From assembly GCA_963705305.1 (NCBI GenBank), contig OY970067.1, forward strand, positions 2,784,001 to 2,848,000: a DNA stretch of 64,000 bases. The letters run 5' to 3'. Positions 2,223 through 30,709 of this stretch are shown one piece after another. Within the stretch, counting starts at the first letter, position 1, and the number at the start of each line of letters is the position of its first letter. Under the pieces are notes generated by a model. That model was not told the origin of the DNA and ran no database searches. It saw only the letters and a program-made list of their open reading frames with translations. Made by a program: the position numbers and the translations under genes. The stretch is from an uncultured Methylomirabilota bacterium (lineage in GTDB: Bacteria; Methylomirabilota; Methylomirabilia; Methylomirabilales; 2-02-FULL-66-22).

Positions 2223-2232
2223 CCCAGCGGCC

Positions 2233-3159
2233 TCAGATGGCCCTCCGACGATTCCTACGCACCAGGGCGATGCCGTTCCAGATCAGGGATTTCGCGAGGA
2301 GATAGTGCGAGTTTATGCACGACCAATCGGCCCGGATCGCCTTGGCGAACTCCGGCGCAGCCCTCTCCGGCTGGTTCTGCTCGAGGAAAAAGATTCCTCG
2401 CATGGCGTAGTTGTGTGCTTTGAAGAACGGCAGCTCATCCCTCAGAATTTCATGCTCTGCTGCCAGGGCGGTCAGCCGTTGAATCCAGGAGAGTCTTGCC
2501 TCGTGGAAGCGTGCACTTTTCGAGTAATTGGAGGGGTGAGAAGTCCAGCGGGCGAATATGCCCGGCACGTAATGGAGCCTGCTTCCCGCGGCCAGGATCC
2601 TGATAAAGAATTCGGCGTCATCGAAGCCGGTTATGCGGTCGTCCGAACTGAGGCCGCCCACACGGTCGAAGGTCTGCTTCCGGATCAGCAGCGTCTGGAT
2701 GGAGAAGAGTCCGGTACTGGTTGCCAGGCAATGGAGCATTTCTTTCCGGCCCGCCTCCCGGCTCCGGAAAATGTCGATCAAATTCCCATTTTCGTCACGA
2801 CGCTCATAATCCGAGTAGACACCGTCGACCTCCGGGTTCTCTCGGAGAGTAGCCGCCTGCGCAGCAAGGCGTCCCGGGAGCATCTCGTCGTCCTGGTCCA
2901 GGATGCATATCAGGTCCCCTCGAGCGACCCGGGCCCCGCTGTTGACCGCCGGGCCCTTCCCTCCATGCGGGACCGATAGCGCCAGTATTCTCGGGTCGGC
3001 GAATGCCGCTATGATGTCGTTTGGAGGAACTTCGGATCCATCATCCACGACAACCGCTTCAAGGGTGACTCCTGCCTGCCGCAACACGCTGCGCAGGGAG
3101 AGGGGGAGCCATTCGTGGCCCCTGTAGTATGGAATTATCACCGAAACCTCAGGATCCAT
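2233..3159 (-). CDS. Glycosyltransferase family 2 with C-terminal TPR-like helices
   Basis: VSVIIPYY, VVDDGS and LDQDD (DxD) motifs. Confidence 0.9.
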   Translation of the reverse strand: MDPEVSVIIPYYRGHEWLPLSLRSVLRQAGVTLEAVVVDDGSEVPPNDIIAAFADPRILALSVPHGGKGPAVNSGARVARGDLICILDQDDEMLPGRLAAQAATLRENPEVDGVYSDYERRDENGNLIDIFRSREAGRKEMLHCLATSTGLFSIQTLLIRKQTFDRVGGLSSDDRITGFDDAEFFIRILAAGSRLHYVPGIFARWTSHPSNYSKSARFHEARLSWIQRLTALAAEHEILRDELPFFKAHNYAMRGIFFLEQNQPERAAPEFAKAIRADWSCINSHYLLAKSLIWNGIALVRRNRRRAI

Positions 3160-3198
3160 AGTTGACCAGTCGGGCCGAGATCCGTCTACGGATGCTCG

Positions 3199-4716: not shown

Positions 4717-5007
4717 CCGGGAGAAATTCCCGCCTGCCTCGGTCCTGCGGGAAATATTCGGGGAGCAAGACCGCATCGATAGTCAGAGGGTCTGGAGCTA
4801 AAAGAAATCCGGAGAAGTCCCACGAACAACTCCAATACGAGCCGGCGACGGAAATCCCCTGCCTACATCGGAGCAGGCCAAGCTGTCATCGGAGCATCAG
4901 GTATCATTTTTTCCCGTCGAGACGCTGGGCAGCACACTTGGGCGGTCCCCAGGAGCCGGAAAAGGGAGTTCGGAAAGACGTTGCGAATGAAAACAACTCT
5001 AGGGCAA

Positions 5008-6429
5008 TCAACGAAGCTCCTCATGACTGGCTGTGTCAGCATCGTTCCGCGGGTTCAAAGCCAACACTGCTACGACTCCAGTCAAAAACCAGAGGGGCTC
5101 CATGATTCGGACGATGATGAAGGTGTTGGCACCGACACCGTGGACAATCATGGCCACCAAGCCAGCCATGTAGCCGAGCGTGATACCCTCGAATCGCGTT
5201 CCCCGGCTGTTCCGCACGGCGTTCCATCCCACGCGGGAGACCCGCCAGAGGAGCCACAGAAACGCACCAATTCCCAGCAAGCCCCCCTCAACGAGAACGC
5301 GAATATATTGCGCATCGATAAAACCGAAGCCGGCGACACCATAGCCAAAGATGGGGCGCTTGGTCCATGCCTCAAAGCCGGTTTTCCAGCTATCAATGCG
5401 TGCGCTGGAGGACGTGTCCAGGCGAGCCCCCGCGATTTGAACGTCGCCACGATCAACTCTTGCATTGAACGTGTAATCGTATCGATCCACGACCTGTTTG
5501 GGAAAGACCAGGGGGCCGACGATGATGAGTATTCCGATCCCGACCATCAGAATCAGCCGCCGGCGACTGAGCAGGATCAGGGTGAAGAACATCGGGACGG
5601 CCGCCATCCAGGAGGTGCGGGACAGGGTGTAGAGCAGTGGAAGGGACACGACGCCGGCAAAGGCGAACCAGCCCAGCTGGGCCTGGAATGCCCGGGCGGT
5701 CAATGCCATCCCCAGGATCAGGGCCAGCATGAACACCAGGTATCCGCCAAACGTGTTGGGCTCGCCGTACTGCCCTTCGAAGGGGGCCGCCACGCGATCT
5801 CCCGAGGGGATCTGGGCGATGCCCATGATCGCGGCGATAGCGCACGTCACGAATGCCGTTGTCAGCAGTCTTCGGACCTGGCGTTCGTCTCGGACGTAGT
5901 TGACCGTCAGGAAATACACCACCAGGTACTCGACATATTTCAGGGTGAAGAAGAATCCGCGGATGGGGCTGACGGTGCCTGCAAACACCCCCAGGAGCGT
6001 GGGGATGACCAGGCTGATGATGTAGACGAAGATGGCCCGATTGAGGGGGGTCTTCCGGACGAGGCCGAGCTCTTTGAAGATGGCCGTGCGCGCGAACCAC
6101 GCCAGCGCGACCGCGACCAGAACGAGGTCCTCGATGCGGAGAACCAGGAGGTCGCCCTTGTTCTCCGGCTTTCCGATGGAGATCCCTGCCACCCCCCCGA
6201 CGACGATTTCGGGCGAGAGGAGCATGGACAGCAGGATGACGTGCAGGGCCAGCTCGGTGTTCAGGAACCCGGCCAGCACGAGCATGAAGAGCAGCGTGGC
6301 GCCCAGGCTGAGGCCCGGCGACGCGTGAGAGATGAGCAGCCCACCTCCCACCGTGAGCAGCAGGACGAAGGCGATCAGCGGCGCCGAGCCGACAACCGAC
6401 GGGTCTGCCCGCTGCGCCATCTTCGCCAT
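5008..6429 (-). CDS. O-antigen ligase/polymerase (Wzy_C family) membrane protein
   Basis: Polytopic; EPNTFGGYL, TLSRTSW and RPIFGYG motifs. Confidence 0.85.
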   Translation of the reverse strand: MAKMAQRADPSVVGSAPLIAFVLLLTVGGGLLISHASPGLSLGATLLFMLVLAGFLNTELALHVILLSMLLSPEIVVGGVAGISIGKPENKGDLLVLRIEDLVLVAVALAWFARTAIFKELGLVRKTPLNRAIFVYIISLVIPTLLGVFAGTVSPIRGFFFTLKYVEYLVVYFLTVNYVRDERQVRRLLTTAFVTCAIAAIMGIAQIPSGDRVAAPFEGQYGEPNTFGGYLVFMLALILGMALTARAFQAQLGWFAFAGVVSLPLLYTLSRTSWMAAVPMFFTLILLSRRRLILMVGIGILIIVGPLVFPKQVVDRYDYTFNARVDRGDVQIAGARLDTSSSARIDSWKTGFEAWTKRPIFGYGVAGFGFIDAQYIRVLVEGGLLGIGAFLWLLWRVSRVGWNAVRNSRGTRFEGITLGYMAGLVAMIVHGVGANTFIIVRIMEPLWFLTGVVAVLALNPRNDADTASHEELR

Positions 6430-6588
6430 CTCGTCACCCTCCGCCCGTCGTTGGCGGCCGTCGCATCAGGCCGAAGACCGCCGAGCCGCGAAGACAGGAA
6501 ACGGAGGTGGGATCGCAGGGCGGCAAGGGCGGGAGAAGGGGAGCCGTCCGGAGGGACAGACGAGAGCGCGGCGATGAGCTTGCCGAAA

Positions 6589-8820
6589 TCATGAAAACCA
6601 GCCCGTGATTTTGCCGAGCAGCGAGCGCCGGCCGCGTGGGGCCTCCCGGAACCCTTCGCGCCGTCCTGGCTCTTGGCCGTAGGCGTACCGGTAGTACTCC
6701 ATCTCCTCGTAGTCCGGGCTGAGGTCGGCCTTGAGGCCGGTCAGCACCACGCCCAGGACCCGGCCGCGGACGTTCTCGAGAAGGGTCTTGGCCCGCTTCA
6801 GCGCAGAACGGGCAATCTTGCCCACCCGGTAGACGATGAGGGTGCCGTCGAGCTTGGCGGAGAGAATGGCCGCATCTGTGACAGGGAGGATGGGCGGGCA
6901 ATCGAAGATGATGAAGTCGAACTCCTGCCGGAAGCTGGCGATCAGCTCCGTCATCCGCTGGGAGTTCAGGAACTCGGTCGGATTCGGCGGCGGCGTGCCG
7001 CTGGTCACCAGGAAGAGTTTGTCGATGTTGGGCGCAGCCATCACGTTCTCCACGCCGAGGGGCCCCAACATCAAGTCGGTGGCGGATCGGAGGCATTCCC
7101 GCCATTCCTTGGTCCCCAGGATGATCTCGGTCAGCCCGGGGTCGCGGGGGATGCCGAAGGCGTGATGCAGGAAGGGCTTCCGCAGGTCGGCCTCCACCAG
7201 CAGGGTCTTCTGGCCCATCTGCGCGATGGTGACGGCCAGGTTGATGGCCGTGGTGGTCTTGCCCTCCATCAGGGAGGCGCTGGTCAGGCACAGCGTCTTC
7301 ACGTTCTTTTCAAGGGACAGGAACTGGACATTGGTCCGCAGCGCGCGATAGGCCTCCGCGAGGGTGGTGCGTGGGCCCAGGAGGCAAATCAGGAACGGCC
7401 GCATCCGCGCCAGCGGGCTGTCCGCCGCCTCTCCCTCCTGGGGGGCGAGGAACGCGTCGGAAGCGGGGTCGATGTTCGGGATCAGGGCCAGGACGGGAAC
7501 CTCGAGGTAGCTTTCGACATCCTCGATGGTTCCGATGGATGTATCCAGGGACTCCAGCACGAAGGCCAGAACCAGGCCGACCGTCAGACCGATGAGCAGC
7601 CCCGCAACCCCCTTGCCGGTCGTATCCGACGGGTTGAGGGGGCCGCGAGAGGGGGTCGCCGGACGGACGATGCTGACCTCGTTGACCTGCTCCTTTTCCC
7701 GGATCTGGACTTCCTGCCGTTTGGTCCGGAGCTGGGTGAGTAGGTTCTCGCTCAGCGTGGCCTCGCGCTGCAGCTGGTCGTACTGCTGGGCCAGATCCGG
7801 GAGGGTCCGCTCCACCTGGCGAGCCTGCTGGAGCTGCTGTTCCAGGGCGGCGGCCCGCTCCTTAAACGCCTGGGTCTTGAGGCGCAGCTCGCGGATGAGG
7901 TTCTCGCGGGTGGCGGCGATGCGCTCGGTAAGATCTTTCACCTGGGGATGCTGGGGGGTGAGGGTGATGAGGAGATTGTCGCGCTCCAGGCTCAGGTCGA
8001 GAAGGGTCGTGTTCAGCTTCGAGATCGTCTGGTCGTTGGCATCCGTGAAGATGCGCGGGGGGATGGACCCGGCCGTGACCCGCGGGTCCTGCAGGGCCTG
8101 GATCTGGCTGGCGGTCTCCTGCTGAGTGCGGCGAACCTTCTCCAGCTCGCTGTTCAGCTCTTTCAGTTGGCTCACCGTGGCGCTGGTCTGGTCCGCCAGG
8201 GAAACGAATCCGTACCGCAGCTTCAGGCCCCGGATCTTGTCCTCGGTTTCACGGAGCCTTCCGCCGATCTCCGCCAGTTGCGCATCGATGAACTGGCGGG
8301 CCTCGGTGATCTGGCTGCCGCGGGTCACGCTGTTCTCCTGCTGGTACGCCTCGGCCACCGCGTTGGCGATCCGGGCCGCCTGCATCGGGTCGCCGGTTTT
8401 CACGGTGACGTCGATGAGGGTCGTGTTCTCCTCGGGGACGGCCTCGACCTGGAGGCGGAGATCGGAGATGAGCTGGAGGTCGTGCGGGCTGCGCTTGATG
8501 GCATCGGAGCCCAGATCGGGAGGAATCAGGTGGAGGGACTTGGCGGCCCGCTCCAGCACGGGGAAGCTGCGGACGACGGCGGCCTGGGTCTGGATGGTAT
8601 CGCTGGGGGTGTAGGACATTGCCTCAACCAGCAGGCCGGCGAACGTCATGGAGCGCTCGTACTTCACGACCGCCGTGGTCTGATACACCGGTTGAGGGCG
8701 CTGCGCCTCGGCGAAAGCAAGGGCCATGGCGCCGAAGGCCAGCGCCACCAGGGCCACGGTCCACTTCCGCTTGCGCAAAATGCGCCAGTAGTCCCGGATG
8801 TTGAGGTCGTATTCCCGCAT
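6589..8820 (-). CDS. wzc: Wzc-type polysaccharide co-polymerase / BY-kinase
   Basis: Two TMs around a coiled-coil; Walker A SLMEGKTT, A' VEADLRKP, B IIFDCPP; Tyr cluster YEEMEYYRYAY. Confidence 0.92.
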   Translation of the reverse strand: MREYDLNIRDYWRILRKRKWTVALVALAFGAMALAFAEAQRPQPVYQTTAVVKYERSMTFAGLLVEAMSYTPSDTIQTQAAVVRSFPVLERAAKSLHLIPPDLGSDAIKRSPHDLQLISDLRLQVEAVPEENTTLIDVTVKTGDPMQAARIANAVAEAYQQENSVTRGSQITEARQFIDAQLAEIGGRLRETEDKIRGLKLRYGFVSLADQTSATVSQLKELNSELEKVRRTQQETASQIQALQDPRVTAGSIPPRIFTDANDQTISKLNTTLLDLSLERDNLLITLTPQHPQVKDLTERIAATRENLIRELRLKTQAFKERAAALEQQLQQARQVERTLPDLAQQYDQLQREATLSENLLTQLRTKRQEVQIREKEQVNEVSIVRPATPSRGPLNPSDTTGKGVAGLLIGLTVGLVLAFVLESLDTSIGTIEDVESYLEVPVLALIPNIDPASDAFLAPQEGEAADSPLARMRPFLICLLGPRTTLAEAYRALRTNVQFLSLEKNVKTLCLTSASLMEGKTTTAINLAVTIAQMGQKTLLVEADLRKPFLHHAFGIPRDPGLTEIILGTKEWRECLRSATDLMLGPLGVENVMAAPNIDKLFLVTSGTPPPNPTEFLNSQRMTELIASFRQEFDFIIFDCPPILPVTDAAILSAKLDGTLIVYRVGKIARSALKRAKTLLENVRGRVLGVVLTGLKADLSPDYEEMEYYRYAYGQEPGRREGFREAPRGRRSLLGKITGWFS

Positions 8821-19409: not shown

Positions 19410-19424
19410 TTGGATTGCAATTTC
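19410..19424 (+). repeat. att core, left copy (TTGGATTGCAATTTC)
   Basis: Identical to 30695-30709; lies just beyond the integrase stop. Confidence 0.85.
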
Positions 19425-19447
19425 TAGGGTGGGAGACCGAGCGTGTT

Positions 19448-20656
19448 CTAACGGGCACTTACGGGGATTGAGGCGTTTTCGGTTGCGCCGGGGTTGCTTT
19501 TGGTTGCGCCGAAACCGACCTCCGGATCGTCCAGCCGGTCCACGGCCTGGCGGTTCGCCCCGGGGATCCAGTGCCCATACAGGTCCACGGTCATCTTGAT
19601 GCTCGCGTGCCCGAGCTGCCGCTGCACGTAGGCCGGGCTTTCCCCCGCCATGAGCAGCAGGCTCGCGTAGGTGTGGCGAAATTGATGGGGCCCCCGGAGA
19701 CGGAGGCCCGCCAGGGTCAACAGGGGCGTCCACACCCGCCGGGTCCAGCCCTCGTAGTCCATCGGCTTGCCGTCCAGTCCCCCGAACACCCAAGGGCTGA
19801 GAGTCTTCCCGTCCACCGTGGCCTGGATCGTGCGGCTGTTCTGGTACTCCGCCAGGGTGGCCCGAAGCTGCTGGCTCATGTCCACACAGCGGCCCTTCCC
19901 GCTCTTCGGCGTGCTCATCCGCCTCTTCGAGTAACCCCGCCGTACCAGCAGGAACCCCCGGGCAAGGTCCACGTCTTCCCAGGCCAGGGCCGATGCCTCC
20001 CCGATCCGCATTCCTGTCCGAGCCAAGGTGAGCACGAGGGGGCGGCTCTCGGGAAAATGACCCTGACACGTTGTCAGCAAGTTACGAAGCTCCTCGGCCG
20101 TAAAGATATCAAGCTGGTCCTTCTGCGAAACTTGCCGGTTCGTGGCGAAGCGGCCAGTCCGGGCGGCCGGGTTGCTGGCCAGCAGGCCGTCATCGACCGC
20201 GGCGGCCAGGACCGCCTGGAAGGGGATCAGGAAGGAGTAGACGCTCCGGGGGTCCAATGCCTTGCCCTTGCTCCGGAGGTTCCCGCCCGCCAGCATGCCG
20301 GCGATCCACCCCTTGATGTCCCCTCGGGTGAGGGTCGGCAAGGGGCGATCCCCCAGGGTGGGGTAGACGTGGTGCTGGAGGGTCCGCTGGTAGTTGGCGA
20401 CGGTGGAGGGCTTGCAGTGGACTTTCGCGTAGACCGACAGCCAGCGGTCGGCATATTCCCGGAGGGTGAGGGGCTGTTCCTGTTGCTCCAGCGCGGAGAA
20501 ATCCCCCAGCGCCAGCTTGGCCGCGATCTTGCCCGCTGCGGTCTCTGCCGCCTTCTTCTTCTGGGGACCGACACCGATCCGCTTCGCCTTCCTCCGGCCC
20601 TGGTGGTGGACGAACACCCACCAGGCGCCGTCTTTCTCCCGGACCGTCACGCCCAT
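19448..20656 (-). CDS. int: Tyrosine recombinase/phage integrase
   Basis: TGMRIGE, TPKS, HQFRHTYAS and LGH...LYGH catalytic residues; N-terminal arm-binding and SAM-like domains. Confidence 0.95.
   Translation of the reverse strand: MGVTVREKDGAWWVFVHHQGRRKAKRIGVGPQKKKAAETAAGKIAAKLALGDFSALEQQEQPLTLREYADRWLSVYAKVHCKPSTVANYQRTLQHHVYPTLGDRPLPTLTRGDIKGWIAGMLAGGNLRSKGKALDPRSVYSFLIPFQAVLAAAVDDGLLASNPAARTGRFATNRQVSQKDQLDIFTAEELRNLLTTCQGHFPESRPLVLTLARTGMRIGEASALAWEDVDLARGFLLVRRGYSKRRMSTPKSGKGRCVDMSQQLRATLAEYQNSRTIQATVDGKTLSPWVFGGLDGKPMDYEGWTRRVWTPLLTLAGLRLRGPHQFRHTYASLLLMAGESPAYVQRQLGHASIKMTVDLYGHWIPGANRQAVDRLDDPEVGFGATKSNPGATENASIPVSAR
19480..19510 (+). repeat. Putative integrase arm-type sites (GGTTGC repeats)
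   Basis: CGGTTGCGCCGGGGTTGC matches 30605-30622 at 17/18; a third GGTTGCGCC at 19502. Confidence 0.6.
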
Positions 20657-20659
20657 GGC

Positions 20660-20842
20660 TTATTTCCCTCCCCTCCGGGCCAGGTATTCGTCGATGATCC
20701 GCTGCAGGAGCGCGTTGACGCTGGCCCGCCCGCGGGCCCCCTCGCGGTCTTGCTCCGCGGCGCGCCGGAGCTTTCGCCACGTCGCCTCGTCCACCACGAC
20801 GCTGAGTCGCACCATCCCCACCTCCTCCCGCGGCTTCCGCAT
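20660..20842 (-). CDS. Ribbon-helix-helix DNA-binding protein
   Basis: RLSVVVDEATWRKLRRAA...SVNALLQRIIDEYL; GGAGG RBS. Confidence 0.75.
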   Translation of the reverse strand: MRKPREEVGMVRLSVVVDEATWRKLRRAAEQDREGARGRASVNALLQRIIDEYLARRGGK

Positions 20843-20865
20843 ACAGACCTCCAATGTGAGAGTAA

Positions 20866-20902
20866 ACGTATATTAATATATACGTCTTTGCGCTCTTGTC
20901 AA
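20866..20902 (-). promoter_or_regulatory. Promoter (TTGACA-N16-TATATT) with an overlapping palindromic operator ACGTATAT-TAAT-ATATACGT
   Basis: Perfect 8-bp inverted repeat at 20866-20885 overlapping the -10 box upstream of RHH-int. Confidence 0.65.
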
Positions 20903-20918
20903 GAGAAATCGGCAGGGA

Positions 20919-21227
20919 CTACTTCCGCAGGCCCGAGACCACCTCATCGACGATCCGGTCAACGTCGGGGGTGTGCTTGAAGGCGTCCATCCAGCGGTCG
21001 AAGTCGGAGCGGCGGACCAGGATCTTGCCGCTGACGGTTCGGAGGCGGCCGGCGCCGGTCTGGATGACGTGGGGCTCCCGCATGCGGTAGTGAGGGAGAG
21101 GGCGCTCCGGGTCGGCCAGGTAGGCGCGGAGAGACCGGACCGACAGCCCGGAGTACTTGCTCAGCGCCTCCAGGCTGAGCCAGGGGTCCAAGTCTTGCGA
21201 GATGGTCACGCCCTCCACCAGTTTCAC
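20919..21227 (-). CDS. Excisionase/AlpA-like winged HTH protein
   Basis: WLSLEALSKYSGLSVRSLRAY...GKILVRRSDFDRWM. Confidence 0.8.
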   Translation of the reverse strand: MKLVEGVTISQDLDPWLSLEALSKYSGLSVRSLRAYLADPERPLPHYRMREPHVIQTGAGRLRTVSGKILVRRSDFDRWMDAFKHTPDVDRIVDEVVSGLRK

Positions 21228-21287
21228 GCCCTGCCTCGCGTCCTACGGGCCGCCCTGCCCCGATCTCCTTTGGAAGGCTACCTACCT

Positions 21288-21536
21288 CTAGCCGCTCGCT
21301 GCCGATCGCCCAAAATTCCCCGCGCCACGTCCGTCCTGCACGGGCTGGCGGGGACGTTCCGGGTCCGCTCCGTCCAGCCTCCGCGCCAGAGCCGCCCGCC
21401 GGCGCCACGCCTTCCCCCGGCGGATGCCCGCGGCAAACTCCCGGGCCGTCAGGAGGAGCACAGCGCCCTTGGGCAACCTGACCGGAATGAGGCCAGGGAG
21501 GCTTGATTTTGGTGCAAGCGCCGCTTTCTCGTTCAC
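21288..21536 (-). CDS. Small basic hypothetical protein
   Basis: ORF LIPVRLPKGAVLLLTAREFAAGIRRGKAWRRR, in operon orientation. Confidence 0.5.
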   Translation of the reverse strand: MNEKAALAPKSSLPGLIPVRLPKGAVLLLTAREFAAGIRRGKAWRRRAALARRLDGADPERPRQPVQDGRGAGNFGRSAASG

Positions 21537-21780
21537 AAGGGCCAAGACGCCTCTCCAGGGTGCCCCAGGTTCCACGATCTCCGCTCCGCCCGTATCCGCC
21601 CATGCACTACCCGCCGCCGCCTCCACCCGAAGAGTTTGGGATGGGGAGGATAGTGGTGAGTTGCCACTTGCTGCCGTCGTAAACAAACTCAAGATCTCCG
21701 AGCGTCCCCTAATCTCCGGCTAAGAAGTTGAGGGGGATCGCGAATCACGCAGCGGCCCGCAGTGCGCGCGGCCCGCGGGG

Positions 21781-21797
21781 TTGGCATCGGCCTTGCT
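21781..21797 (+). promoter_or_regulatory. sigma54-type -24/-12 motif TTGGCATCGGCCTTGCT inside the IS
   Basis: TGGCA...TTGCT with exact GG-N10-GC spacing, ~43 nt before the transposase ATG. Confidence 0.5.
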
Positions 21798-21839
21798 TGG
21801 TTTCACCCAGTGGGTGCAAACACCACAAGGAGGAGAGCG

Positions 21840-23213
21840 ATGCCCGACACCTCGCCCCGGTTGCCGTTCGAGATCGATGACGCGATCGACCCCACGCTGG
21901 TCACGGGCCGGGCCGGGGTCCCGCTCGTGATCGAGCTGTTCCGCCAGCTCGGGGTGGCCCAGGCCGTCGACACCCACGTTGCGGTCAAGCAGCGGCAGCG
22001 CGGATTACCCCCCTCGCAGCTCGTGGAGAGTCTCGTCGCGTTGTGGACGAGCGGCGGGGACCGCTGCCAGGACCTCACGACGCTCCGGGAGGATCAGGCC
22101 CTGGCCACGCTGCTCGGCTACCCCCTGCCGGCCGCGACCACGGTCCGGGACTTCCTCGAGGCCTTCCACGTGGAGGACGGGCCGCTCTGGGTGGCCGGGC
22201 CCGCGGCCACGGTCCCCCTGGAGTCCGCCCCCTTGGCGGGCCTCGGACAGGCGAACCGGACGCTGGTCGCGGGCGTCCAGCGCGGGGCCCGGGCGGCGAC
22301 GGCCACCCTGGATGTGGACGCGACGCTCGTCGAGAGCCACAAGGACGCGGCGACCGTGGCCTACGACGGGACCCGGGGCTACCAGCCCGTCGTGGTCCTC
22401 TGGGCCGAGCACGATGTCATCGTGCACGACCAGTTCCGCGATGGCCAGGTGCCCGCCGGGTGCGGCAACGTGCGCGTCCTCGAACAGGCGGTGGCCAACT
22501 TGCCCCAGGGCGTGGACCGCATCTCCCTGCGGGCCGACAGCGCCCTCTACGAGACGGAGGTCCTCCGCTGGTGCGAGGAGAAGAAAATCGCCTACGCGAT
22601 TAGCGCCGATATGTCCGCGCAGCTCCAGGCCGAGATCCGGCGCCTCCCCGCGGCCGCCTGGCAGCTCGAGCGGGAGGAGCCCGAGGCGATCCGGGCCTGG
22701 GCCGAAGTCCCCTACGTCCCCGAGGATGGCGATCACCGGAAGGCGCGGCCGTGCGTTCGCCGCTACCTCGCGGTGCGTATCCAGCGACGCCAGGGGAGCC
22801 TCTTCGCCGACGGGAGTAGCGTGCAGTACTTCGCCGTGGTCACCAATCGGCCGGAGGATGGGCTCACGATCCTCCGGTGGCACCGGGAGAAAGCAGGGAC
22901 CATCGAGCACACCCATCACGTCCTCAAGACCGAGCTGGCGGCCGCCGCGCTGCCCAGTGGGAAGTTCGGGGCGAACGCCGCCTGGTTCCGGCTGAACGTG
23001 CTCACCTACAACCTGCTCACCGCGCTCAAGCGGTTGACCTTACCCGGAGATCTCCGGACCGCCCGGCCGAAGCGTCTCCGGTTCCTGCTGTTCAACACCG
23101 TCGGGAAGGTCGTCGCGCATGCCCGACGGACGCTCTTGCGGCTCTCGGGCGCCCTGCAGCACGCCTTGCTCGTCCGGGCGCGGCGCAAGATCGCCCGGCT
23201 GGCCACCGCTTAG
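21840..23213 (+). CDS. tnp: IS1380-family DDE transposase
   Basis: LDVDAT, GYQP, LRADSALY, IEH..HVLK and FGANAAW motifs; AAGGAGG RBS. Confidence 0.93.
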   Translation: MPDTSPRLPFEIDDAIDPTLVTGRAGVPLVIELFRQLGVAQAVDTHVAVKQRQRGLPPSQLVESLVALWTSGGDRCQDLTTLREDQALATLLGYPLPAATTVRDFLEAFHVEDGPLWVAGPAATVPLESAPLAGLGQANRTLVAGVQRGARAATATLDVDATLVESHKDAATVAYDGTRGYQPVVVLWAEHDVIVHDQFRDGQVPAGCGNVRVLEQAVANLPQGVDRISLRADSALYETEVLRWCEEKKIAYAISADMSAQLQAEIRRLPAAAWQLEREEPEAIRAWAEVPYVPEDGDHRKARPCVRRYLAVRIQRRQGSLFADGSSVQYFAVVTNRPEDGLTILRWHREKAGTIEHTHHVLKTELAAAALPSGKFGANAAWFRLNVLTYNLLTALKRLTLPGDLRTARPKRLRFLLFNTVGKVVAHARRTLLRLSGALQHALLVRARRKIARLATA

Positions 23214-24090
23214 CCGGAGATTAGGGGCGTCCCGGTTGTGTTGTCGTTTATGACAAAGGTATGCGTTCCGAAATTGTACGCGGTGCCCCAATTCATGGTT
23301 ATGGCCGTTGATTCCGGGCAGGTCACAATGAACGTGATTCGGTGCCCGGTCGTCGTATCCGTTGGATTGCTTATCGCAAACGTTCCACCCCCAGTGAAGT
23401 TGAGTTCGAAGATGTCGTAATCCACCGAGTCAATCGTGATCGTCCCGGCAATGGTGGGCTTGGTGAAGTGCCCGGTAGTGCCGCCGGTCGGAATGGTGAT
23501 GTTCGCCGTCCCGTTGAAACTCACCCCGTTGATCGTCCGGGCGGTTTGGAGTGCGGTTGCCGTTGCGGCGTTTCCCGAGGTCGAGCTGGCGACCGTGGCC
23601 GCGGGCACGGTACCCGTCACCAGGGAGCCCGGGATCGACCCTGCCGAGAGCGTCCCCACCGATGTCAGCGAAGAGTTGACCACGGTCGGGGCCAGGGTCG
23701 TACCCGTGAGGGCGCCGGCGGGGACCGCGGCCAGGGCCACCCACGCGGTTCCGCTGTCAAGGTAGACCCCCGGCGTAGTGCCGTCCGTCACATTGACCAG
23801 CCGGCCGGCGATGCCGGGCGCGGGGCACTGATTCGCCCCGGCGCCGAGGGTGCAAGAGCGGAGGGGGTTGACCAGCTGGATCGTCCCGTTGATAAGGGCC
23901 TGAAAGTTGTCGTCCAGGTAGGACAGCGGCACAGTCCCGGTTAGTGAAGAAAAGGTGTGGGGGAAGGTCACCGCCGCGTGGGCTGGCAGCACCAGGGCGA
24001 AGAGGAAGAGAACAGCGAGGGCGAATCGTCGAAACATGGGGCCTCCTTTCGGGGCGTCAGTTTGTTTCATGGGGTCTCAATCCTGTGTGA

Positions 24091-24303
24091 CCGTTACGTT
24101 TCGTTACGGGCACGCTCACGCGAAGTTACGTTGTAGGTGTCACGGCGTTACGGGCACCAGCCGGGCCTTTCCCACTCGTTCTCACGGCTTCGCTTTCCGA
24201 AACACCCGAAACACCCCGTAACCCCTTTTCGGTAAAGTCCCTTATGAGAGAAATTCATTTAAAAGTTACCGAAAAGCCGTTACGTACTGTTACGGTGTTT
24301 CGG
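24091..24303. repeat. Putative replication origin: GTTACG iterons and an inverted repeat around an AT-rich core
   Basis: GTTACG at 24093, 24103, 24125, 24147, 24279, 24289; IR CTTTTCGGTAA/TTACCGAAAAG (24225-24276); immediately downstream of the primase gene. Confidence 0.7.
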
Positions 24304-26476
24304 AATCCGGCTCCATCCTCTCCGACAACAGTCGAATCCCTACCCGCACTTTTCGGCGCGTGACGCTGTGCCGCTTGTCTGGAAACCCGCGTTCATTGAG
24401 GGCTTCCCCGAACACCGTCTGCGTCTCCGGCCGTTCTTTACCCTGCTCGCACCAGGCGACATAGGCCCGGTATAGGTCCGTCGCCCCGGCCGTCTCCTCC
24501 TCGGCCGCCTCGCAACACTCCGCCAGAAACGCCCCGATGAGGTCCTGACTGGCCCGGTATTCCGCCGTCGCCTCGCGCACGGCCTCCGGCGTGCCCAGTC
24601 CGTCCCGTTGCCAAGCAAGACACCCGTCCACCGCCCACCGCAGGATGCCCGGGAATTCCGCCCGCAACTTCCCCAGCAAGTCCTTGTCCTGCTCCGCCTC
24701 CGGGATCTCCACCACGAACGGCACCAGCCGGACGCGCCGCCAGGTTGCATGATCGGTTCCCTGGATAGTCGGCTTGTGGTTCGTCGCCAGCCACAGCTTG
24801 AATTCGGGGGCAAACTCGAAGTATTCCCCGTAGAGGAATCGCGCGGCGATTTTGTCCCCGCCCGTGAGCTGCTTTACCAGGGCCTCGGCGAGTCGCCGCC
24901 CCCCGTCCGTCTCCACCGCCGCCACCAGCCGGGCCCCGCGGAGGCGCGCCAGGTCGTTATCAGCCGCCTCGCCCCGCTTGGCGAGCAAGGTCTTTGCCGG
25001 CGTCCAGGCCGCATAGTCCCCCAGGAGGTCAATCACGGTTCGGACCAGCGTGCTCTTTCCGTTCGCCCCGGGCCCATGGAGCAACGCCCACACTTGCTCG
25101 CTCGTGATGCCGGTCAGGCAGTAACCGAGCATCCGTTGCAGGAATCCGATGGTGGACACATCCCCGGCCAGAATCCGCTGGAGAAACGCCTCCCACGTCG
25201 GCGCGGTTGCCTCCGGGTCCCACGTCACGGGCGCCAGCTTGCTGATGAAATCCTCCGGCCGATGGTCCAGCAGCAGCCCCGTCCGAAGATCCAGCACTCC
25301 GCTCTCCACATTGAGCAACCACGGATCGCGGTCAAAGGCGCTTGGCGCAATCGGGGTGCCTTCCTCCGACTTCGCCAGGTTCACCATTGCCCGGAGTTTC
25401 GCGTCGGCCTCCATCTTGAGGGCGTGACTGCCGATCTCTTTCCGGGTGTCCTTGTCGGCACAGTCCGCGGCTTCGGCGTACACCGCCCGGCTGGTATCCT
25501 TCGCCCACCGCATGACTTGCCCGCTATCATCCTTGGCCCAGCGCCGGCCGTCCCACGTCAGGAAACAGCCCCATGCCTCGCACCAGCGGAACCGATCGCC
25601 GAACCGCGCCACCAGCCGGCGGGCGTTCCCCAGGTCGGTCAAGTGTTCCACCGTGAGACTGCCCCCGGCCGGTTCGGTGCGCGGCCGGTTCGGTTGCGTC
25701 ACGACATGGGCGGCCAGCTCCGAGACTTCCCCTTCCGACAAGGGCGGATCGCAACGCGCCGCATTCTCCGCCCGCAAGGCCGCCGTAATTGCCTCCCCAC
25801 TCAGCCCCTTGAGTACGAGACTTCGCCCCAAGCGATACAGCGTATCGTTTCGGGCGCCGGTCGGGATTGTGCCGTTGCTCCCCGCAGGGACAGCGGCAGC
25901 TGGCGCGGTCAGGAGGGCCAGCAACCGGGCAGGGAGTGGGGCGAGCGGGACTTGTTCGGGACTCACCAGCCATTCATACTGTCGGCCGGATCCGTGGACG
26001 CTCGGCGGCGCCACCACGTACCCTCCAGCGCCGCGCACATCCACCCCGGGCAGGATGCCTGCGCGGTTCTCGATTGGCCGGCTGCCATTGGTGGGATACG
26101 CAAAGTAGAAATGAAAGCCCTTGCCCGTGGTGGCTGTCCAGGTCTCGCCGTTCCACCCGAGCGTTTCCTTTGCCCTGGCGAGGTCGGCAAAGTCCACGTC
26201 GAAAACCACAACCCCGGACACGGGCCCGGTCGGAATGCCGATGTTTGCCTCCGGCCAGCGGGTCCACCATTCCTCCACCTCATCCATGTGCGGGGGTTCG
26301 GTCTGATAGGCTTTCCAGCTATCCAGTTTTGGCTTTTTCCGGCTCTCTATGTTGCCCGTCCACCGCAGGGGAATGACACATAGGCCCTTGCGCCGATACG
26401 CCAGCGCCGCCTCGCGGAGGCTGCTCTCGGTTGACGTTTTTCCTTGTGGTGTGCGGGTGTCGGATGGTAAAAACAT
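24290..26476 (-). CDS. Bifunctional primase-polymerase + PriCT + P4/D5-type SF3 helicase
   Basis: NIGIPTG, DVD, GFHFYF, DVRGAGGYVVAPPS; TDLGNARR; Walker A GPGANGKS; TGGDKIAARFLY. Confidence 0.93.
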   Translation of the reverse strand: MFLPSDTRTPQGKTSTESSLREAALAYRRKGLCVIPLRWTGNIESRKKPKLDSWKAYQTEPPHMDEVEEWWTRWPEANIGIPTGPVSGVVVFDVDFADLARAKETLGWNGETWTATTGKGFHFYFAYPTNGSRPIENRAGILPGVDVRGAGGYVVAPPSVHGSGRQYEWLVSPEQVPLAPLPARLLALLTAPAAAVPAGSNGTIPTGARNDTLYRLGRSLVLKGLSGEAITAALRAENAARCDPPLSEGEVSELAAHVVTQPNRPRTEPAGGSLTVEHLTDLGNARRLVARFGDRFRWCEAWGCFLTWDGRRWAKDDSGQVMRWAKDTSRAVYAEAADCADKDTRKEIGSHALKMEADAKLRAMVNLAKSEEGTPIAPSAFDRDPWLLNVESGVLDLRTGLLLDHRPEDFISKLAPVTWDPEATAPTWEAFLQRILAGDVSTIGFLQRMLGYCLTGITSEQVWALLHGPGANGKSTLVRTVIDLLGDYAAWTPAKTLLAKRGEAADNDLARLRGARLVAAVETDGGRRLAEALVKQLTGGDKIAARFLYGEYFEFAPEFKLWLATNHKPTIQGTDHATWRRVRLVPFVVEIPEAEQDKDLLGKLRAEFPGILRWAVDGCLAWQRDGLGTPEAVREATAEYRASQDLIGAFLAECCEAAEEETAGATDLYRAYVAWCEQGKERPETQTVFGEALNERGFPDKRHSVTRRKVRVGIRLLSERMEPDSETP

Positions 26477-26563
26477 CTCACATTCTCTTCTGCCCCTCGC
26501 TGCGTATGGCCGGCCAAGCCCGCGGCGGGGGGCAAACTGTTTGCGGTCACGCGGCCTGCCGCG

Positions 26564-26758
26564 TCAAGAGCGAAGTGCCTCCAGCGTCCCCGTGGAGACG
26601 GGCTCCCGATCTTGATGTCGGCCGCCGACCAGCCGCCGAAGTTCCTCCACGGCCGGGGAAATCTTGGCGAAGAGCAGGGCGGCCTGACGCTCTTCCCGGC
26701 CATCCAAGCCACAAAGTTGGACTTGAACCCTTTTCGGGGTTACGGTGATGAACACCAT
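26564..26758 (-). CDS. Small hypothetical protein
   Basis: GGGGGTGA RBS; lies between the sigma-like gene and the primase. Confidence 0.5.
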   Translation of the reverse strand: MVFITVTPKRVQVQLCGLDGREERQAALLFAKISPAVEELRRLVGGRHQDREPVSTGTLEALRS

Positions 26759-26824
26759 ATTCGATCACCCCCTATAAGGGGGAATCGCTGGGCGGAGGAA
26801 AAATGTAAAGGGCTGTCGTCTTTT

Positions 26825-27877
26825 TTAGGAAGGATCGGTCAGGGGGGAGAGTTTCGCGAGTTTGCTCAACTTGGAAAGATAATTGTGGATCGTCTGCCGG
26901 GTCGTCTTGTGCCGCTTGGCCACCTCTTCCCACGTCAGGCCAGTAGTGTAATAGTCCAGAATCGCGTTTTCCACCTGGACAGGGACCTGCGCCTTCTCGA
27001 TAAGGTGGGCAAGCGTGATTCGGTCCTCTGTCCCCAAAAGTTCATCAGGGGCAATAGGCGTGTACGCCTCGGGGCGATTTTCTGTCCCTTCCTCTGTTGC
27101 CTCGGGCTCGTCTATCACCTGTACTTTATCAGGGAATGAGAGCGGGTTACGCCGTTCATGCTTGAAGTTGTCTATCAAGTCACGTTTAACGCCGATTTTG
27201 AGGTCCCGCGCATCAAGGGCTGGGGCCAACCTGTCGGTAATCAAACGGACGATTTGCGGCCACACCCCGGAGATCTGCTTCTCCCACAACTCAGCCTCGC
27301 TCGCCGCAAGGGGAAGCGGAAAGGAAGGGTGCGGTCCCGCCTCAAGGGCTGTGGAATCGCTGGCGGGGGCCTTAAGGAATTCCAGTACTGTAGCGAAGGC
27401 CTCCTGGTGTCGGTCTTTCTCGTCCCATTCCAGGCAATCGGCGCTCGTGGGGGTAAAGGGCCTTACGCCCATCCACCTTGCCAGCCGCTTCAAATCATCC
27501 GTGTCCGGATCTATCCCCGCCAATTGGATGGCGAAGACAAGCCGCAGGGCCACAGGCTTCTTGTCGAGGCGGGCCCAGTACTCCTCCAAGAGTGACAGTT
27601 GGTGTTCTTGGCATGCGACCAATAGGGCGAAGAGGCGCGGCTCGTAGTAGAGGCGACAAAGCTCTTTGATCTTAACGGGGGTGAGGTCGCCCGACGCTTC
27701 CAGTAGTGCTTGCCACTCGGCTTGTGTCGTTGCCGGCCAGCGGCCGGAGCCACGGAAAAGCACCAGACCGACCGCGAACGTTTCAATGAGTCGCTGCCGG
27801 AATATCCGCTCGAGGAAATCCCGGCTGGAGTCTTGAGGAAACCCGCCAACATATGGACATGGGGGAATTTCTATCAT
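26825..27877 (-). CDS. Divergent ECF sigma-like protein with a C-terminal sigma region-4 HTH
   Basis: GLTWEEVAKRHKTTRQTIHNYL HTH; region-2-like DRHQEAF and RDLIDNFKHERR; GGAGG RBS. Confidence 0.6.
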   Translation of the reverse strand: MIEIPPCPYVGGFPQDSSRDFLERIFRQRLIETFAVGLVLFRGSGRWPATTQAEWQALLEASGDLTPVKIKELCRLYYEPRLFALLVACQEHQLSLLEEYWARLDKKPVALRLVFAIQLAGIDPDTDDLKRLARWMGVRPFTPTSADCLEWDEKDRHQEAFATVLEFLKAPASDSTALEAGPHPSFPLPLAASEAELWEKQISGVWPQIVRLITDRLAPALDARDLKIGVKRDLIDNFKHERRNPLSFPDKVQVIDEPEATEEGTENRPEAYTPIAPDELLGTEDRITLAHLIEKAQVPVQVENAILDYYTTGLTWEEVAKRHKTTRQTIHNYLSKLSKLAKLSPLTDPS

Positions 27878-27965
27878 ACGTTCCTCCCGCAGGAGTCCCG
27901 ATGGGATCCCCGGCCAGGCCGTCGGGAACGGCTTTTCGGGAGCGACCCTAGGCCGGGGGGCTCTT

Positions 27966-28475
27966 CTACCGATGGGCCAGCGCTGCCGGGGACAAGATAA
28001 CCTTCGCCGGCCGCCGCTCCCGTTTACGCTCGATCGAGCGGAGGGCGTCTCGAATCTGCCGCAGGTGCGGAGGGAGATCCTTCCCATTGCCCGGGACACT
28101 CCACACGCCGAAGATCAGCCGGATCAGGCGCTCGCTGGGAGGCCCAATCGGCTCTCCGCCGGTCTCCCACCGGGTCACGCTCTCGCGCCGGACCCCCATG
28201 AGTTCGGCCAATTCCTTAGTAGTCAGCCCCATCTGCTTCCTGAGAAACCGGCACTCAGAGCCCCGAAGAGGGAGAAGTTGCTGGGCTAACCAATCCGCGA
28301 TCCATTGGTGCAACCGGAGAGGGTTGGGAAATTCGGGGTACTCTGCGCCACACTTCCGGCACCGGTAGACGGTGATCCCTCTGAGCCACAGGTCGGGGAT
28401 CCCGCTCTCTGGGTAAGGGACTGTCTGGTTCCGTCGGGCTCGCATCCGCGTGCCGCACTCTGGGCACCGCATCAT
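27966..28475 (-). CDS. MqsA/YgiT-type zinc finger + Xre HTH antitoxin
   Basis: CPECG...CRKCG zinc finger and RFLRKQMGLTTKELAELMGV..ESVTRWETG HTH. Confidence 0.88.
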   Translation of the reverse strand: MMRCPECGTRMRARRNQTVPYPESGIPDLWLRGITVYRCRKCGAEYPEFPNPLRLHQWIADWLAQQLLPLRGSECRFLRKQMGLTTKELAELMGVRRESVTRWETGGEPIGPPSERLIRLIFGVWSVPGNGKDLPPHLRQIRDALRSIERKRERRPAKVILSPAALAHR

Positions 28476-28498
28476 GGCTTCTTCTCCTCCTGAATACC

Positions 28499-28831
28499 TC
28501 AGTACGCCGTGACCAGAATCAAGCGGAAGTTTTCCTGTTCAATGCAGACGACCACGTGAAGTTCCGAGCCTTCCACGTCCGTCCCCGCGACCTCGTAGGT
28601 GTAGGTTCGGTAACCAGCCTTCCACTGGCCTGGGCGATTGACAGTTCCGTGCTCTAGGACATGGTTCACGTCCCCCATGTCCGCGTTGGCCTTGCCGAGT
28701 TCGCGTCCAAAGTGTTCGGTCCTGCTGAAGGTGCCGCCTTCGAGGAAGATGTGTCGTATGATTTCGGTTGCGTGCGCGGGAGTCAAGGGCGGGGGATGGT
28801 CCCCCGGGTGCCCCTTTGACCGGTTCATCAT
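28499..28831 (-). CDS. DUF4258-like putative RNase toxin
   Basis: TEHFGREL, DVNHVLEHG, YEVAG and C-terminal LVTAY; directly upstream of the MqsA-like gene. Confidence 0.75.
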   Translation of the reverse strand: MMNRSKGHPGDHPPPLTPAHATEIIRHIFLEGGTFSRTEHFGRELGKANADMGDVNHVLEHGTVNRPGQWKAGYRTYTYEVAGTDVEGSELHVVVCIEQENFRLILVTAY

Positions 28832-28978
28832 GACAGGCCTTATGTAACATTTCCGCACATCCCAGGTCAAGGAAAAAGAGCAGGACCCCGGGCGCACGGC
28901 GGGCAGCCGAACCCAAGGCCTCGGGAGGGCCTTTTCCTGTCGCGAACGGTAGGCCGGGGAGTGGCGGTCGCGCTAGGA

Positions 28979-29317
28979 TTACTCGGGCGCAAATCCTGCC
29001 TGCTGCATGCAGGCGCGGTACAGGTCATTTTCTGTCGATTGCCGGGCGATTTCAGTGAATACAGATAACCCAGCAGCCGCCCCCACAAGCGGCACGCTAC
29101 CGGCTTGGCCCGCTGATTGTTCTGCAGCGGCATTTCCGCGTTCGGTTGAGAGGTACTGCTGATTCGCGCTCGCCTCGGCCCAGATATGACACCGATTGTT
29201 TTCGATCACCCATGCCGAACTGCGGGACGGACCTGCGGCGCAGGAGACCAAGAGGGTTGCTAGGGTTATGTCTTGACATATCACGATGTACCACCGGATG
29301 CTGCGCCTTGGCTCCAT
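28979..29317 (-). CDS. Putative lipoprotein
   Basis: LLVSC lipobox-like motif, GAAAG segment, C-terminal YRACMQQAG. Confidence 0.6.
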   Translation of the reverse strand: MEPRRSIRWYIVICQDITLATLLVSCAAGPSRSSAWVIENNRCHIWAEASANQQYLSTERGNAAAEQSAGQAGSVPLVGAAAGLSVFTEIARQSTENDLYRACMQQAGFAPE

Positions 29318-29402
29318 GGTATCCTCCGATCCAATAATAGCCTTCACCCGCTCTCGCGGGGACGCGCACTGCACGACGCGTCCCTTGGTGGACGCATGAA
29401 GG

Positions 29403-29816
29403 CTATCGGCACGTGGTGTTGCCGAGCGGATCTGAACTGCACCGCAGGATGTTCCCATGGTTGTCGCGGTAGGTGCGATTCCCCAACGGATCGGTGGACT
29501 CGTGAATGGTGTTGCCGCGCTCGTCTCGATAGGTTTCGTTCCCCAAGGGGTCGCGGGAGCCCCGCCACGTACTACCCTGGTCATTGCGATACGTTCGATT
29601 CCCCAACGGATCGGTGGACTCGCGCGTCGTATTGCCCCTATCATCCCGCCATGTCTCGTTTCCGAGGGGGTCGCGGGAGCCCCGGATGGTGTTGCCGTGG
29701 CTGTCCCGACAGGTGGTGTTTCCGAGTGGATCGGTAGAGCAGCGAACTTGTGCTGCAGCCGGCACTGACAGAAGCGTGAGTACGAAAAGAATTATGACCC
29801 ACAGTCCCGGTTTCAT
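29403..29816 (-). CDS. Secreted repeat protein (DPLGN repeats)
   Basis: Signal peptide plus six S-x-DPLGN units at a 20-aa (60-bp) period. Confidence 0.8.
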   Translation of the reverse strand: MKPGLWVIILFVLTLLSVPAAAQVRCSTDPLGNTTCRDSHGNTIRGSRDPLGNETWRDDRGNTTRESTDPLGNRTYRNDQGSTWRGSRDPLGNETYRDERGNTIHESTDPLGNRTYRDNHGNILRCSSDPLGNTTCR

Positions 29817-30000
29817 ATGAACCCCCTTTTCTGAGAAGGTCCAGCCCAGTCCGTTCCCGCGCGCACGGCGGATGCCTTCACGCTTCCGCCCCTCGCCTCT
29901 CTCTCCTCACCCAATCCACCCGACTCCCCCTCCGTCACGGGTCTTGTGGGCCCTCGTGTATAACATAGCGCAACCCCCGTGCAGACGCCAGGCCTCTTCG

Positions 30001-30330
30001 CTACTTGCTCTCCGGCGTAAGCGGTGGATCTGTCAGGCTCACGCCCCCGCCCCGCTTGGCCCGCTTCCGCCCCGCATCCCGCCGTTTGAATCGCCCCTTG
30101 TAGGCCTTCGCGCGCCCCCGCCACCAGTCCCGGGGAGCCTGCTGGACGGTGTACCACAGCCCGTCCCGCGTGACCTGCTCGACACTCAGTCGGTAGGCCC
30201 CCGCGATACCATGAAGCTGCCGGTACAGTTCCGGTTCGACCAGCGCCTTGACGTGGCGCCATCCCGCGGCCTGGCGCGCCCGCCGGGACTTCGGCTCTCC
30301 GCTCATGGTGTTCTCTGCCGTCACGCCCAA
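30001..30330 (-). CDS. Small basic protein, possibly RHH-like
   Basis: AAGGAGG RBS; RHVKALVEPELYRQLHGIA...SVEQVTRDGL. Confidence 0.55.
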   Translation of the reverse strand: MGVTAENTMSGEPKSRRARQAAGWRHVKALVEPELYRQLHGIAGAYRLSVEQVTRDGLWYTVQQAPRDWWRGRAKAYKGRFKRRDAGRKRAKRGGGVSLTDPPLTPESK

Positions 30331-30694
30331 ACCTCCTTGTGTGAGTTAGCGATTCGCCTACGTCCATGCCCGGCTCAGAATGCCCTCTTTTCTCCCTGTA
30401 GGATCAGCGTAGAGCCGGGAATTTTCGACGATCTCCCCTGACCCGCTACCTCCCTAGCCGTCCGGGGGGGGTGACCCTGGAAATTTTGTGTGGGTGGCGG
30501 ACCAAAGGGGGGTCCGCGTATGCGCTGTTTCGGCCTTTTGCCCTCATAGAAAATCCGCCTTGCTCCCGGATGCCCCCCGCGCCTCCGGCGGCCCTCGCCG
30601 ATTCCGGTTGCGCGGGGGTTGCGTCCTGTGCTATGAAATGCCGTCCTTTGCAATCCCAGCCCCGTAAGTTCTCGTTGCCAGACCCACCCTTTTT

Positions 30695-30709
30695 TTGGAT
30701 TGCAATTTC
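30695..30709 (+). repeat. att core, right copy
   Basis: Identical to 19410-19424. Confidence 0.85.

Follow-up and report, generated by a model that had tools for sequence, protein, structure and literature searches.

The window analysed here (G000:C1:2784001-2848000, a stretch of 64,000 nucleotides) belongs to the closed 5.65-Mb genome, roughly 67% G+C, of a soil or sediment bacterium, and its minus strand carries a gene for a phage-tail-fibre-like protein with an apparent export leader, lying within a small integrated island. The gene runs from an ATG at 24035-24037 to a stop at 21607-21609, with a Shine-Dalgarno sequence (AGGAGG, 24042-24047) four bases upstream of the ATG, and is cut after codon 268 by an insertion sequence (IS) of 1520 bp at 21707-23226. 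As it stands, the reading frame continues into the IS and encodes 275 aa (protein P0001). When the IS and one copy of GCGTC are taken out by script, a 906-nt frame of 301 aa plus the stop is restored, reproducing the reconstruction given in the preliminary description of this DNA. The parts of the interrupted gene are as follows.

24042..24047, minus strand: Shine-Dalgarno sequence AGGAGG, read from the sequence.
23232..24037, minus strand: 5' part of the fibre gene, codons 1-268 and two bases of codon 269 (open reading frame, ORF; exact match to protein P0001).
23975..24037, minus strand: leader, codons 1-21, with two Arg in the n-region, then a hydrophobic core of 13 residues, and Pro-Ala-His-Ala preceding the predicted cut; helix at residues 2-21 in the model.
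23723..23974, minus strand: N-module, codons 22-105, a putative tail-docking and trimerising part that starts TFPHTF...PLSYLDDNF, holds C62 and C71 and contributes to the predicted trimer interface.
23852-23854 and 23825-23827, minus strand: cysteine codons C62 and C71, read from the sequence.
23483..23722, minus strand: shaft, one tail-fibre repeat (motif at 23492-23575; phrog_6722, E = 3.9e-13, residues 131-202).
23234..23482, minus strand: codons 186-268, the beginning of the C-terminal tip domain, which the IS interrupts (tip hidden Markov model, HMM; residues 188-284 of the read-through protein, E = 4.8e-6).
21607..21706, minus strand: 3' part of the fibre gene, from the last base of codon 269 through codon 301 to the stop, read from the sequence.
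21707..23226, plus strand: insertion sequence, transposase at 21840-23213 (DDE_Tnp_1_4 of Pfam, E = 2.7e-39; inverted repeats; GCGTC duplication).

The IS has perfect terminal inverted repeats of 18-19 bp and is flanked by a 5-bp target duplication, GCGTC, at 21702-21706 and 23227-23231. Because the genome holds at least 24 full-length copies with about 100% identity, the insertion is recent and the fibre gene one victim of the expansion of this IS. The copy of the fibre gene in the window is therefore dead, broken by an actively spreading IS, and it is the only copy in its genome. What four metagenome runs contained was mostly the IS, together with short exact fragments of the fibre gene; in none of them did a contig join across the IS-free junction or bridge the border between the IS and the fibre gene by 31 letters. 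A second copy of the IS in the window (60816-61912 and 62114-62545) is itself split by about 200 bp.

The sequence landmarks that had been reported for the reconstructed protein are all present, namely the N-terminus MFRRFALAVLFLFALVLPAHA, the motif GNAATATALQTARTINGVSFNGTANITI (codons 155-182), YLDSGTAW and EFVYDGSKW, with one correction: the protein does not end at EFVYDGSKW, which is followed by 18 more residues, the last six of them glycines.

An exhaustive search of 1.84 billion proteins gave 2556 matches to the fibre at E ≤ 1e-3, nearly all to the shaft repeat alone, and two proteins that match from residue 1, P0190 (507 aa) and P0211 (653 aa). Across the leader and N-module, the first ~100 residues, the three proteins share 63-69% identity, and their C-terminal parts are unrelated: P0190 continues with a Gly_rich_2 domain and a match to a tail family of the PHROG collection, P0211 with a probable beta-helix that belongs to no family, and the fibre with its shaft repeat and tip. 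Invariant in the trio are M1, R3, R4, P18, A19, the TFPHTF...PLSYLDDNF stretch, C62 and C71, and the three leaders have in common M-x-R-R, a hydrophobic core and P-A-[HY]. That the leader is real, as had been proposed, is borne out by its retention in both homologues in the face of many synonymous codon changes (over the 21 leader codons the fibre gene and its counterpart on contig L186 differ by 9 synonymous and 10 non-synonymous changes) and by a Shine-Dalgarno sequence before the ATG in two of the three genes, AGGAGG in the fibre gene and AAGGAG in L190. Comparison of these homologues shows leader and N-module to be under purifying selection.

The leader was called by a crude rule of our own (positive n-region, hydrophobic core of at least 10 residues, small residues at positions -3 and -1). 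Besides its two Arg and 13-residue core, the fibre leader has a window mean hydropathy of 2.4 and A-H-A before the cut, and P0190 is similar in these respects; these features suggest that the fibre is exported by the Sec route and cleaved. Export by the Tat route, considered from the conserved Arg-Arg, was set aside, since the very hydrophobic core and the short n-region appear to fit Sec better and a further relative, P0273, has Lys-Lys. Translation could also begin inside the leader, at the GTG of codon 23 (Val23, 23969-23971), which would leave the leader unused and give a cytoplasmic fibre starting M-TFPHTF like ordinary phage spikes. This extra GTG stands directly before TFPHTF in the fibre gene alone, and leader-less relatives begin at the same point; however, no Shine-Dalgarno sequence precedes the GTG whereas AGGAGG precedes the ATG, neither L186 nor L190 has a start codon there (L190 has none after codon 11), and the leader is conserved at the protein level, so that we regard an internal start as highly improbable.

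A profile search with the N-module added five proteins, P0273-P0277. P0273 has an unrelated leader of its own, with the Lys-Lys mentioned above, and a phage tail collar domain, while P0274, P0275 and P0276 start M-x-FPHTF...PLSYLDDNFN and continue with GDSL esterase, pectate-lyase-like or beta-helix-like parts; the N-terminus of P0277 is the same as that of P0276. At least 10 viral or metagenome proteins have the N-terminus M-x(1-5)-FPHTF/PYTF...PLSYLDDNF, with esterase, pectate-lyase-like or other domains at the opposite end, the leader-less start being found in proteins of L187-L189, L191-L193 and L195-L198 (viral and metagenome contigs). Because these leader-less starts coincide with the predicted cut, the predicted mature N-terminus of the leader-bearing proteins corresponds to the natural N-terminus of ordinary phage spikes and fibres. 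More generally, M-x-FPHTF/PYTF...PLSYLDDNF(N) recurs as an extreme N-terminus on viral contigs, attached to very different C-terminal enzymes or binders; the FPHTF...PLSYLDDNF N-terminus has no Pfam family and gave no tblastn match in GenBank phage records. The premise of the preliminary description, that virion fibres do without signal peptides, is weakened by this coincidence of N-termini and by the presence of the leader-bearing P0211 gene in a complete phage, described below.

The cysteine pair is invariant in the leader-bearing trio and absent from the leader-less relatives that were read. Its confinement to proteins with a leader fits folding in an oxidising compartment, where C62 and C71 may form a disulfide. 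Such a compartment is available in the host, which encodes Omp85/BamA and LpxC and so, as a diderm, has a periplasm.

The protein resembles phage fibres over its whole length, and not only in the single motif from which that likeness had first been suggested. A Pfam scan of the fibre protein gave no match. In the PHROG scan 16 families, 10 of them annotated as tail or tail fibre, match residues 103-248, phrog_6722 being the best (see above), and the shaft contains a repeat of the NAATAT-LQTARTINGVSF-GTANITI type; a word-indexed search with the fibre protein returned 553 matches, again nearly all to this repeat alone. The tip HMM, which was built from 41 C-terminal tip domains of viral-locus fibres (none from this genome), scores 21.5 bits against the read-through protein, and the next-best of the 567 window ORFs scores 4.2 bits; the tip of the fibre at viral locus L034 matches phrog_7760 and phrog_9017. 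Judged by these profile matches, the likeness to fibres is far beyond chance. The near-full-length relatives form the P0002 group, leader-less proteins with 37-40% identity over 61-69% of the query, in which residue 11 aligns with residue 21 of the fibre; their genes are carried by viral contigs, where they are grouped with genes for portal, major head, fibre and internal virion proteins. Further relatives were sought with little result. A search of the PDB by sequence gave nothing below E = 0.07; 50,697 GenBank phage records gave no tblastn match to the N-module or to the 268 aa, although the low-complexity filter may hide the repeat in this search; when the N- and C-terminal parts were compared separately with the first 120 matches by phmmer, and when residues 1-105 were used in a word-indexed search, only the protein itself was returned. 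A scan with P0267, directed at the context of other leader-bearing fibre-repeat proteins, yielded repeat matches only, its sole N-terminal match (L280) being internal to a 1010-aa protein, and in the ESM Atlas the nearest clusters to residues 1-105 are viral, all under 0.9 and useful as leads only.

The trimeric assembly typical of a fibre was examined by structure prediction with three copies of residues 22-268, as the preliminary description had recommended. A trimer is predicted: over three runs the median ipSAE (an interface score) is 0.77, whereas the best of three controls reaches 0.00; the mark applied to this score is reached by 20 of 30 solved pairs and by 1 of 23 single chains, and it holds only roughly for three copies and a custom alignment. 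In the model the partner pLDDT (predicted local distance difference test) is 79, at least 88% of contacts are common to the runs, and the interface involves residues 23-185, so that the fibre protein is predicted to be homotrimeric. The monomer model (AlphaFold2, 26-row alignment) is poor, with a mean pLDDT of 58 and a predicted template modelling score of 0.28, apart from the helix at residues 2-21 (pLDDT 89 over the first 10 residues); Foldseek with this poor model found no match in the PDB at E ≤ 0.001, a result that is not evidence against a fibre fold.

A leader-like N-terminus is not confined to the trio. By the crude rule it occurs in 14 of the 237 fibre-repeat homologues with a complete N-terminus (~6%; 23 of 260 were set aside as not starting with M, V or L), and several of the 14, which have leaders of Bacteroidota type and many repeats, may be cell-surface proteins. 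These, together with the leader and binding tip of the fibre itself, would suit a secreted trimeric adhesin, supplied by the island for attachment of the host and having no phage partner. We consider such a role very unlikely: the sequence shows no feature for anchoring or for export to the outer membrane, the nearest homologue whose full context was seen belongs to a phage genome, and none was found in 60 relatives or in 250 genomes of the phylum. Leader-bearing homologues were placed on a phage and on an island, and none of the homologues proved to be an ordinary host surface protein, the 14 with leader-like N-termini being judged from their sequences.

The gene context of the family was followed for the three leader-bearing members. 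P0211 is encoded by G251, an IMG/VR record of 38,488 bp with direct terminal repeats of 127 bp, in which genes for a large terminase, a portal and a major head protein of HK97 type are also present. The P0211 gene is the last large one of the rightward structural block of G251 and is followed by a DUF5675 gene; relatives of the gene upstream of it were found in one unrelated arrangement. The gene for P0190 lies on L186, a metagenome contig of 40 kb, within an island of ~9.5 kb that has ilvC on one side and a helicase gene on the other. Compared with the island in the window, that of L186 has an AlpA-like gene that is 70% identical, an integrase that is 37.5% identical and two further conserved stretches, and its Prim-Pol is fused to a DnaB-like helicase. 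The island in the window and G251 share no DNA beyond the part that encodes the N-module, and no shared packaging site was seen between them. The best reading of these contexts is that leader and N-module derive from a lineage of phages of short-tailed type whose terminal spike-like gene has the same leader, and, with the closest relative in a complete tailed-phage genome, the leader seems to be part of the design of the fibre.

The island in the window lies between an Orn/Lys/Arg decarboxylase gene and secD. It measures 11.3 kb, or 9.8 kb once the IS is discounted, and is bounded by a 15-bp exact direct repeat, TTGGATTGCAATTTC, at 19410-19424 and 30695-30709. In 7 of the 9 same-genus loci fetched by the secD flank the two flanks are adjacent and the site is empty (the other two lack the left flank), and 4 of the 9 have a single attB-like core copy with two mismatches; the attachment site is intergenic, not in a tRNA gene. 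All genes of the island are on the minus strand: integrase, a 64-aa ORF, an AlpA-like helix-turn-helix (HTH) protein, the fibre, a Prim-Pol/D5 helicase, a 424-aa ORF, an HTH_3/MqsA-like and DUF4258 pair, and poorly defined ORFs. Its other principal features are listed here.

19410..30709, no strand: integrated island (direct repeats; empty site in 7 of 9 same-genus loci).
19448..20656, minus strand: tyrosine integrase (Pfam, PHROGs).
20919..21227, minus strand: AlpA/excisionase-like HTH protein, the marker of the island family (HTH_17, 21.5 bits, below the Pfam cut-off of 27).
24290..26476, minus strand: Prim-Pol/D5-type helicase replication protein (phrog_1156, E = 1e-159).
24092..24284, no strand: cluster of CGTTACG repeats between primase and fibre genes, candidate iterons or operators (4 of the 6 copies in the window).

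An integrase, an AlpA-like regulator (with the HTH_17 score below the cut-off) and a primase of its own, on an island of this small size, make up the gene content that suggests a satellite. Of the satellite origin that the preliminary description places beside the fibre gene, the CGTTACG cluster is the only sign seen. The whole-window count of CGTTACG is unremarkable, 6 copies being reached in 10 of 100 shuffles, and looser GTTAC copies are also present in the 250-bp spacer. The HTH_3/MqsA-like zinc-ribbon protein (27966-28475) adjoins the DUF4258 protein (28499-28897) in what looks like an antitoxin-toxin pair, and both are about 72% identical to their counterparts in the related locus L222. 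Three tandem 60-nt units lie at 29455-29694, where the long ORFs, rich in Arg, Gly and Pro, look off-frame. Outside the island, positions 2000-6000 of the window have a G+C content of 0.56-0.60, against about 0.67-0.70, and a strong AT skew, and may be another foreign segment.

Relatives of the AlpA-like protein were matched in 38 of 251 genomes of the phylum, one of which, G075, is marked as unpublished. Five related loci of the genus (L220-L224) all have the integrase and AlpA-like genes, with a detectable primase match only in L222 and L224. One of them, L220 (G000:C1:3817000-3818300), is a second, decayed island in the same genome, in which the AlpA-like gene has 83-84% identity and the 64-aa ORF 89%, while the integrase is fragmented. 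Another, L223 (G020:C6, about 2087-7554), has beside its integrase/AlpA-like pair genes for an SbcD-like nuclease, a 1164-aa SbcC-like ATPase and a small nuclease-like protein (named from their N-termini), the last with a leader ending ...PPSTHA|A that resembles the fibre leader in style. The fibre gene is accessory cargo and does not belong to the core of the island family: tblastn (E ≤ 1e-4) detected it in none of the five loci, and a search with the entire protein gave no match in 60 relatives.

Cargo of this kind might have no role. A phage fibre gene gained through recombination between island and phage could be a neutral hitch-hiker, its loss to the IS being without consequence, as would agree with its absence from all five related island loci, its disruption by an IS with at least 24 near-identical copies and the lack of partner genes beside it. 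What makes a neutral passenger decidedly unlikely is that two related islands hold the same leader and N-module with different C-termini and at different positions, which points to repeated acquisition or retention, and that leader and N-module are under purifying selection. A leader and docking module kept constant while the distal parts are exchanged, as seen across a phage and two islands, is what receptor-binding proteins show when they have to fit a single type of tail.

The reading that we favour is that the gene encodes a phage receptor-binding fibre which matures in the periplasm, was captured by a satellite-like island, and docks at lysis onto the virions of helper phages with a matching tail; we hold it tentatively, at somewhat less than an even chance. 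The fibre would be exported by Sec to the periplasm of the diderm host and would fold and oxidise there. When a helper phage with a matching tail lyses the cell, the fibre would dock through its N-module onto finished particles, and either particles containing island DNA or the helper's own particles would thereby gain the receptor specificity of the island. We infer both the docking on a helper and the behaviour of the island as a satellite. In a wider form of this proposal, which is in our view rather unlikely, the island would be a phage satellite that supplies the receptor-binding fibre itself; the fibre would leave the cytoplasm through Sec, undergo oxidation in the periplasm and attach to helper particles only once the compartments mix at lysis, and the spike of the helper lineage would take the same route.

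Several observations weigh against this interpretation. The copy in the window is broken, and a present function is not readable from it. The likeness of the N-module to the N-domain of podovirus fibres, which may indicate homology, is weak (HMM E = 0.023, residues 70-102, with the version that excludes this genome's own sequence; tblastn E = 3.6e-4, 33% over 87 aa). P0211 has Pro at position -1 of the aligned cut site, and signal peptidase I disfavours Pro at the residue before the cut; moreover, it is the position of its gene from which P0211 appears to be a virion protein. The position of the fibre gene differs between the island of the window and that of L186, and its absence from the five related loci marks it as dispensable. 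A profile search of this genome and of 250 others from the phylum detected the N-module in no further protein, and the capsid protein of G251 has no relative in this genome, so that no helper is in view. Within the island, Pfam and PHROGs detected no capsid, portal, terminase, tail, packaging or capsid-remodelling gene, several ORFs having no family, and no match to sid/psu/delta, cpm or a small terminase; the island would be a satellite on the strength of its gene content.

An exported trimer might also act in superinfection exclusion. In that case it would bind the surface receptor of the cell itself, or in the relatives with enzyme domains degrade it, from the periplasmic or outer side, incoming phages could not adsorb, and the gene would be a defence gene of the island. 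The leader and the receptor-binding type of tip agree with this, as do the variability of the gene as cargo of islands in whose family a toxin-antitoxin-like pair is also found, the swapping of C-terminal parts among homologues (Gly-rich, beta-helix-like, collar) that is expected for different receptors, and the related islands that do without the gene. However, a pure blocker needs no tail-docking N-module with 63-69% identity to a phage spike-like gene, the fibre sequence has no lipobox or outer-membrane targeting feature, no PADLOC model matches the fibre, P0190, P0211 or the island genes, and no paper on an exported fibre-like exclusion protein was found in the extracts returned by a full-text literature search. 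Superinfection exclusion is unlikely, although the strongest of the rival readings. Of the three roles originally put forward for this protein, a receptor-blocking decoy, an adhesin or a fibre for helper particles, the evidence leans to the last.

In the textbook account all parts of a tailed phage are made in the cytoplasm, and satellites are known to steal capsids and tails but not to contribute the parts that recognise the host. If the proposed periplasmic maturation and docking are correct, some of the assembly of tailed phages would occur beyond the cytoplasm, and helper particles could be redirected by satellites to new hosts. A leader-bearing fibre common to phage and islands would show that host-recognition proteins can mature in the periplasm, where disulfides can form, and mobile islands would trade such modules, which bears on the movement of host range between elements. 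New here are the leader and N-module common to two other proteins, one on an island and one in a complete phage, the leader-less spikes that start at the predicted mature N-terminus, and the placing of the gene as accessory cargo in an island absent from 7 of 9 same-genus loci; in the extracts returned by the same literature search, no paper described a tail fibre with a leader or a fibre of this kind encoded by a satellite. The value of the copy in the window is as a pointer to this family (P0190, P0211 and the leader-less FPHTF...PLSYLDDNF proteins), not as a working gene.

Among known systems, satellites of the P4 and phage-inducible chromosomal island (PICI) families are small integrated islands with an integrase, an AlpA-like HTH protein, a primase-helicase and variable cargo, all of which the island in the window possesses. 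Unlike them, it has no match to sid/psu/delta, a small terminase or capsid-morphogenesis genes, and its attachment site is intergenic and not in a tRNA gene. To our knowledge no leader-bearing fibre gene has been described for the P4 and PICI families, and the literature search, in the extracts that it returned, gave none. The g3p of filamentous phages offers a parallel for the proposed route: it is a receptor-binding protein made with a Sec leader, undergoes oxidation in the periplasm and is added to the particle outside the cytoplasm. However, it has no sequence likeness to the fibre, which lacks a C-terminal membrane anchor and has its relatives among tailed phages, and no inovirus assembly gene was matched in the island by Pfam or PHROGs. 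The spike of a membrane virus, anchored by its leader, was considered as well and rejected, since the other ORFs of the island include no membrane or ATPase genes and the phage relative is tailed. Llp of phage T5 is reported to be an exported superinfection-exclusion lipoprotein aimed at the phage receptor (PMC9586334), and resembles the fibre as a phage- or island-encoded protein that crosses the inner membrane; proteins of this type are small lipoproteins unrelated to fibres, whereas the protein in the window is a full, predicted trimeric fibre with no lipobox. The podovirus-like leader-less fibres (the P0002 group and that of L034) share shaft repeats and tip with the fibre, with a weak match in the N-domain, and the P0002 group differs from it in having no leader and several shaft repeats, in its length of about 440 aa and in being encoded by phages, not islands. 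The closest likeness is to P0211 and P0190, which have the same leader, N-module and cysteine pair: P0211 differs in lying within a tailed-phage structural module and in its unrelated C-terminus, and P0190, like the fibre, is found on an island of the related integrase, AlpA-like and primase type.

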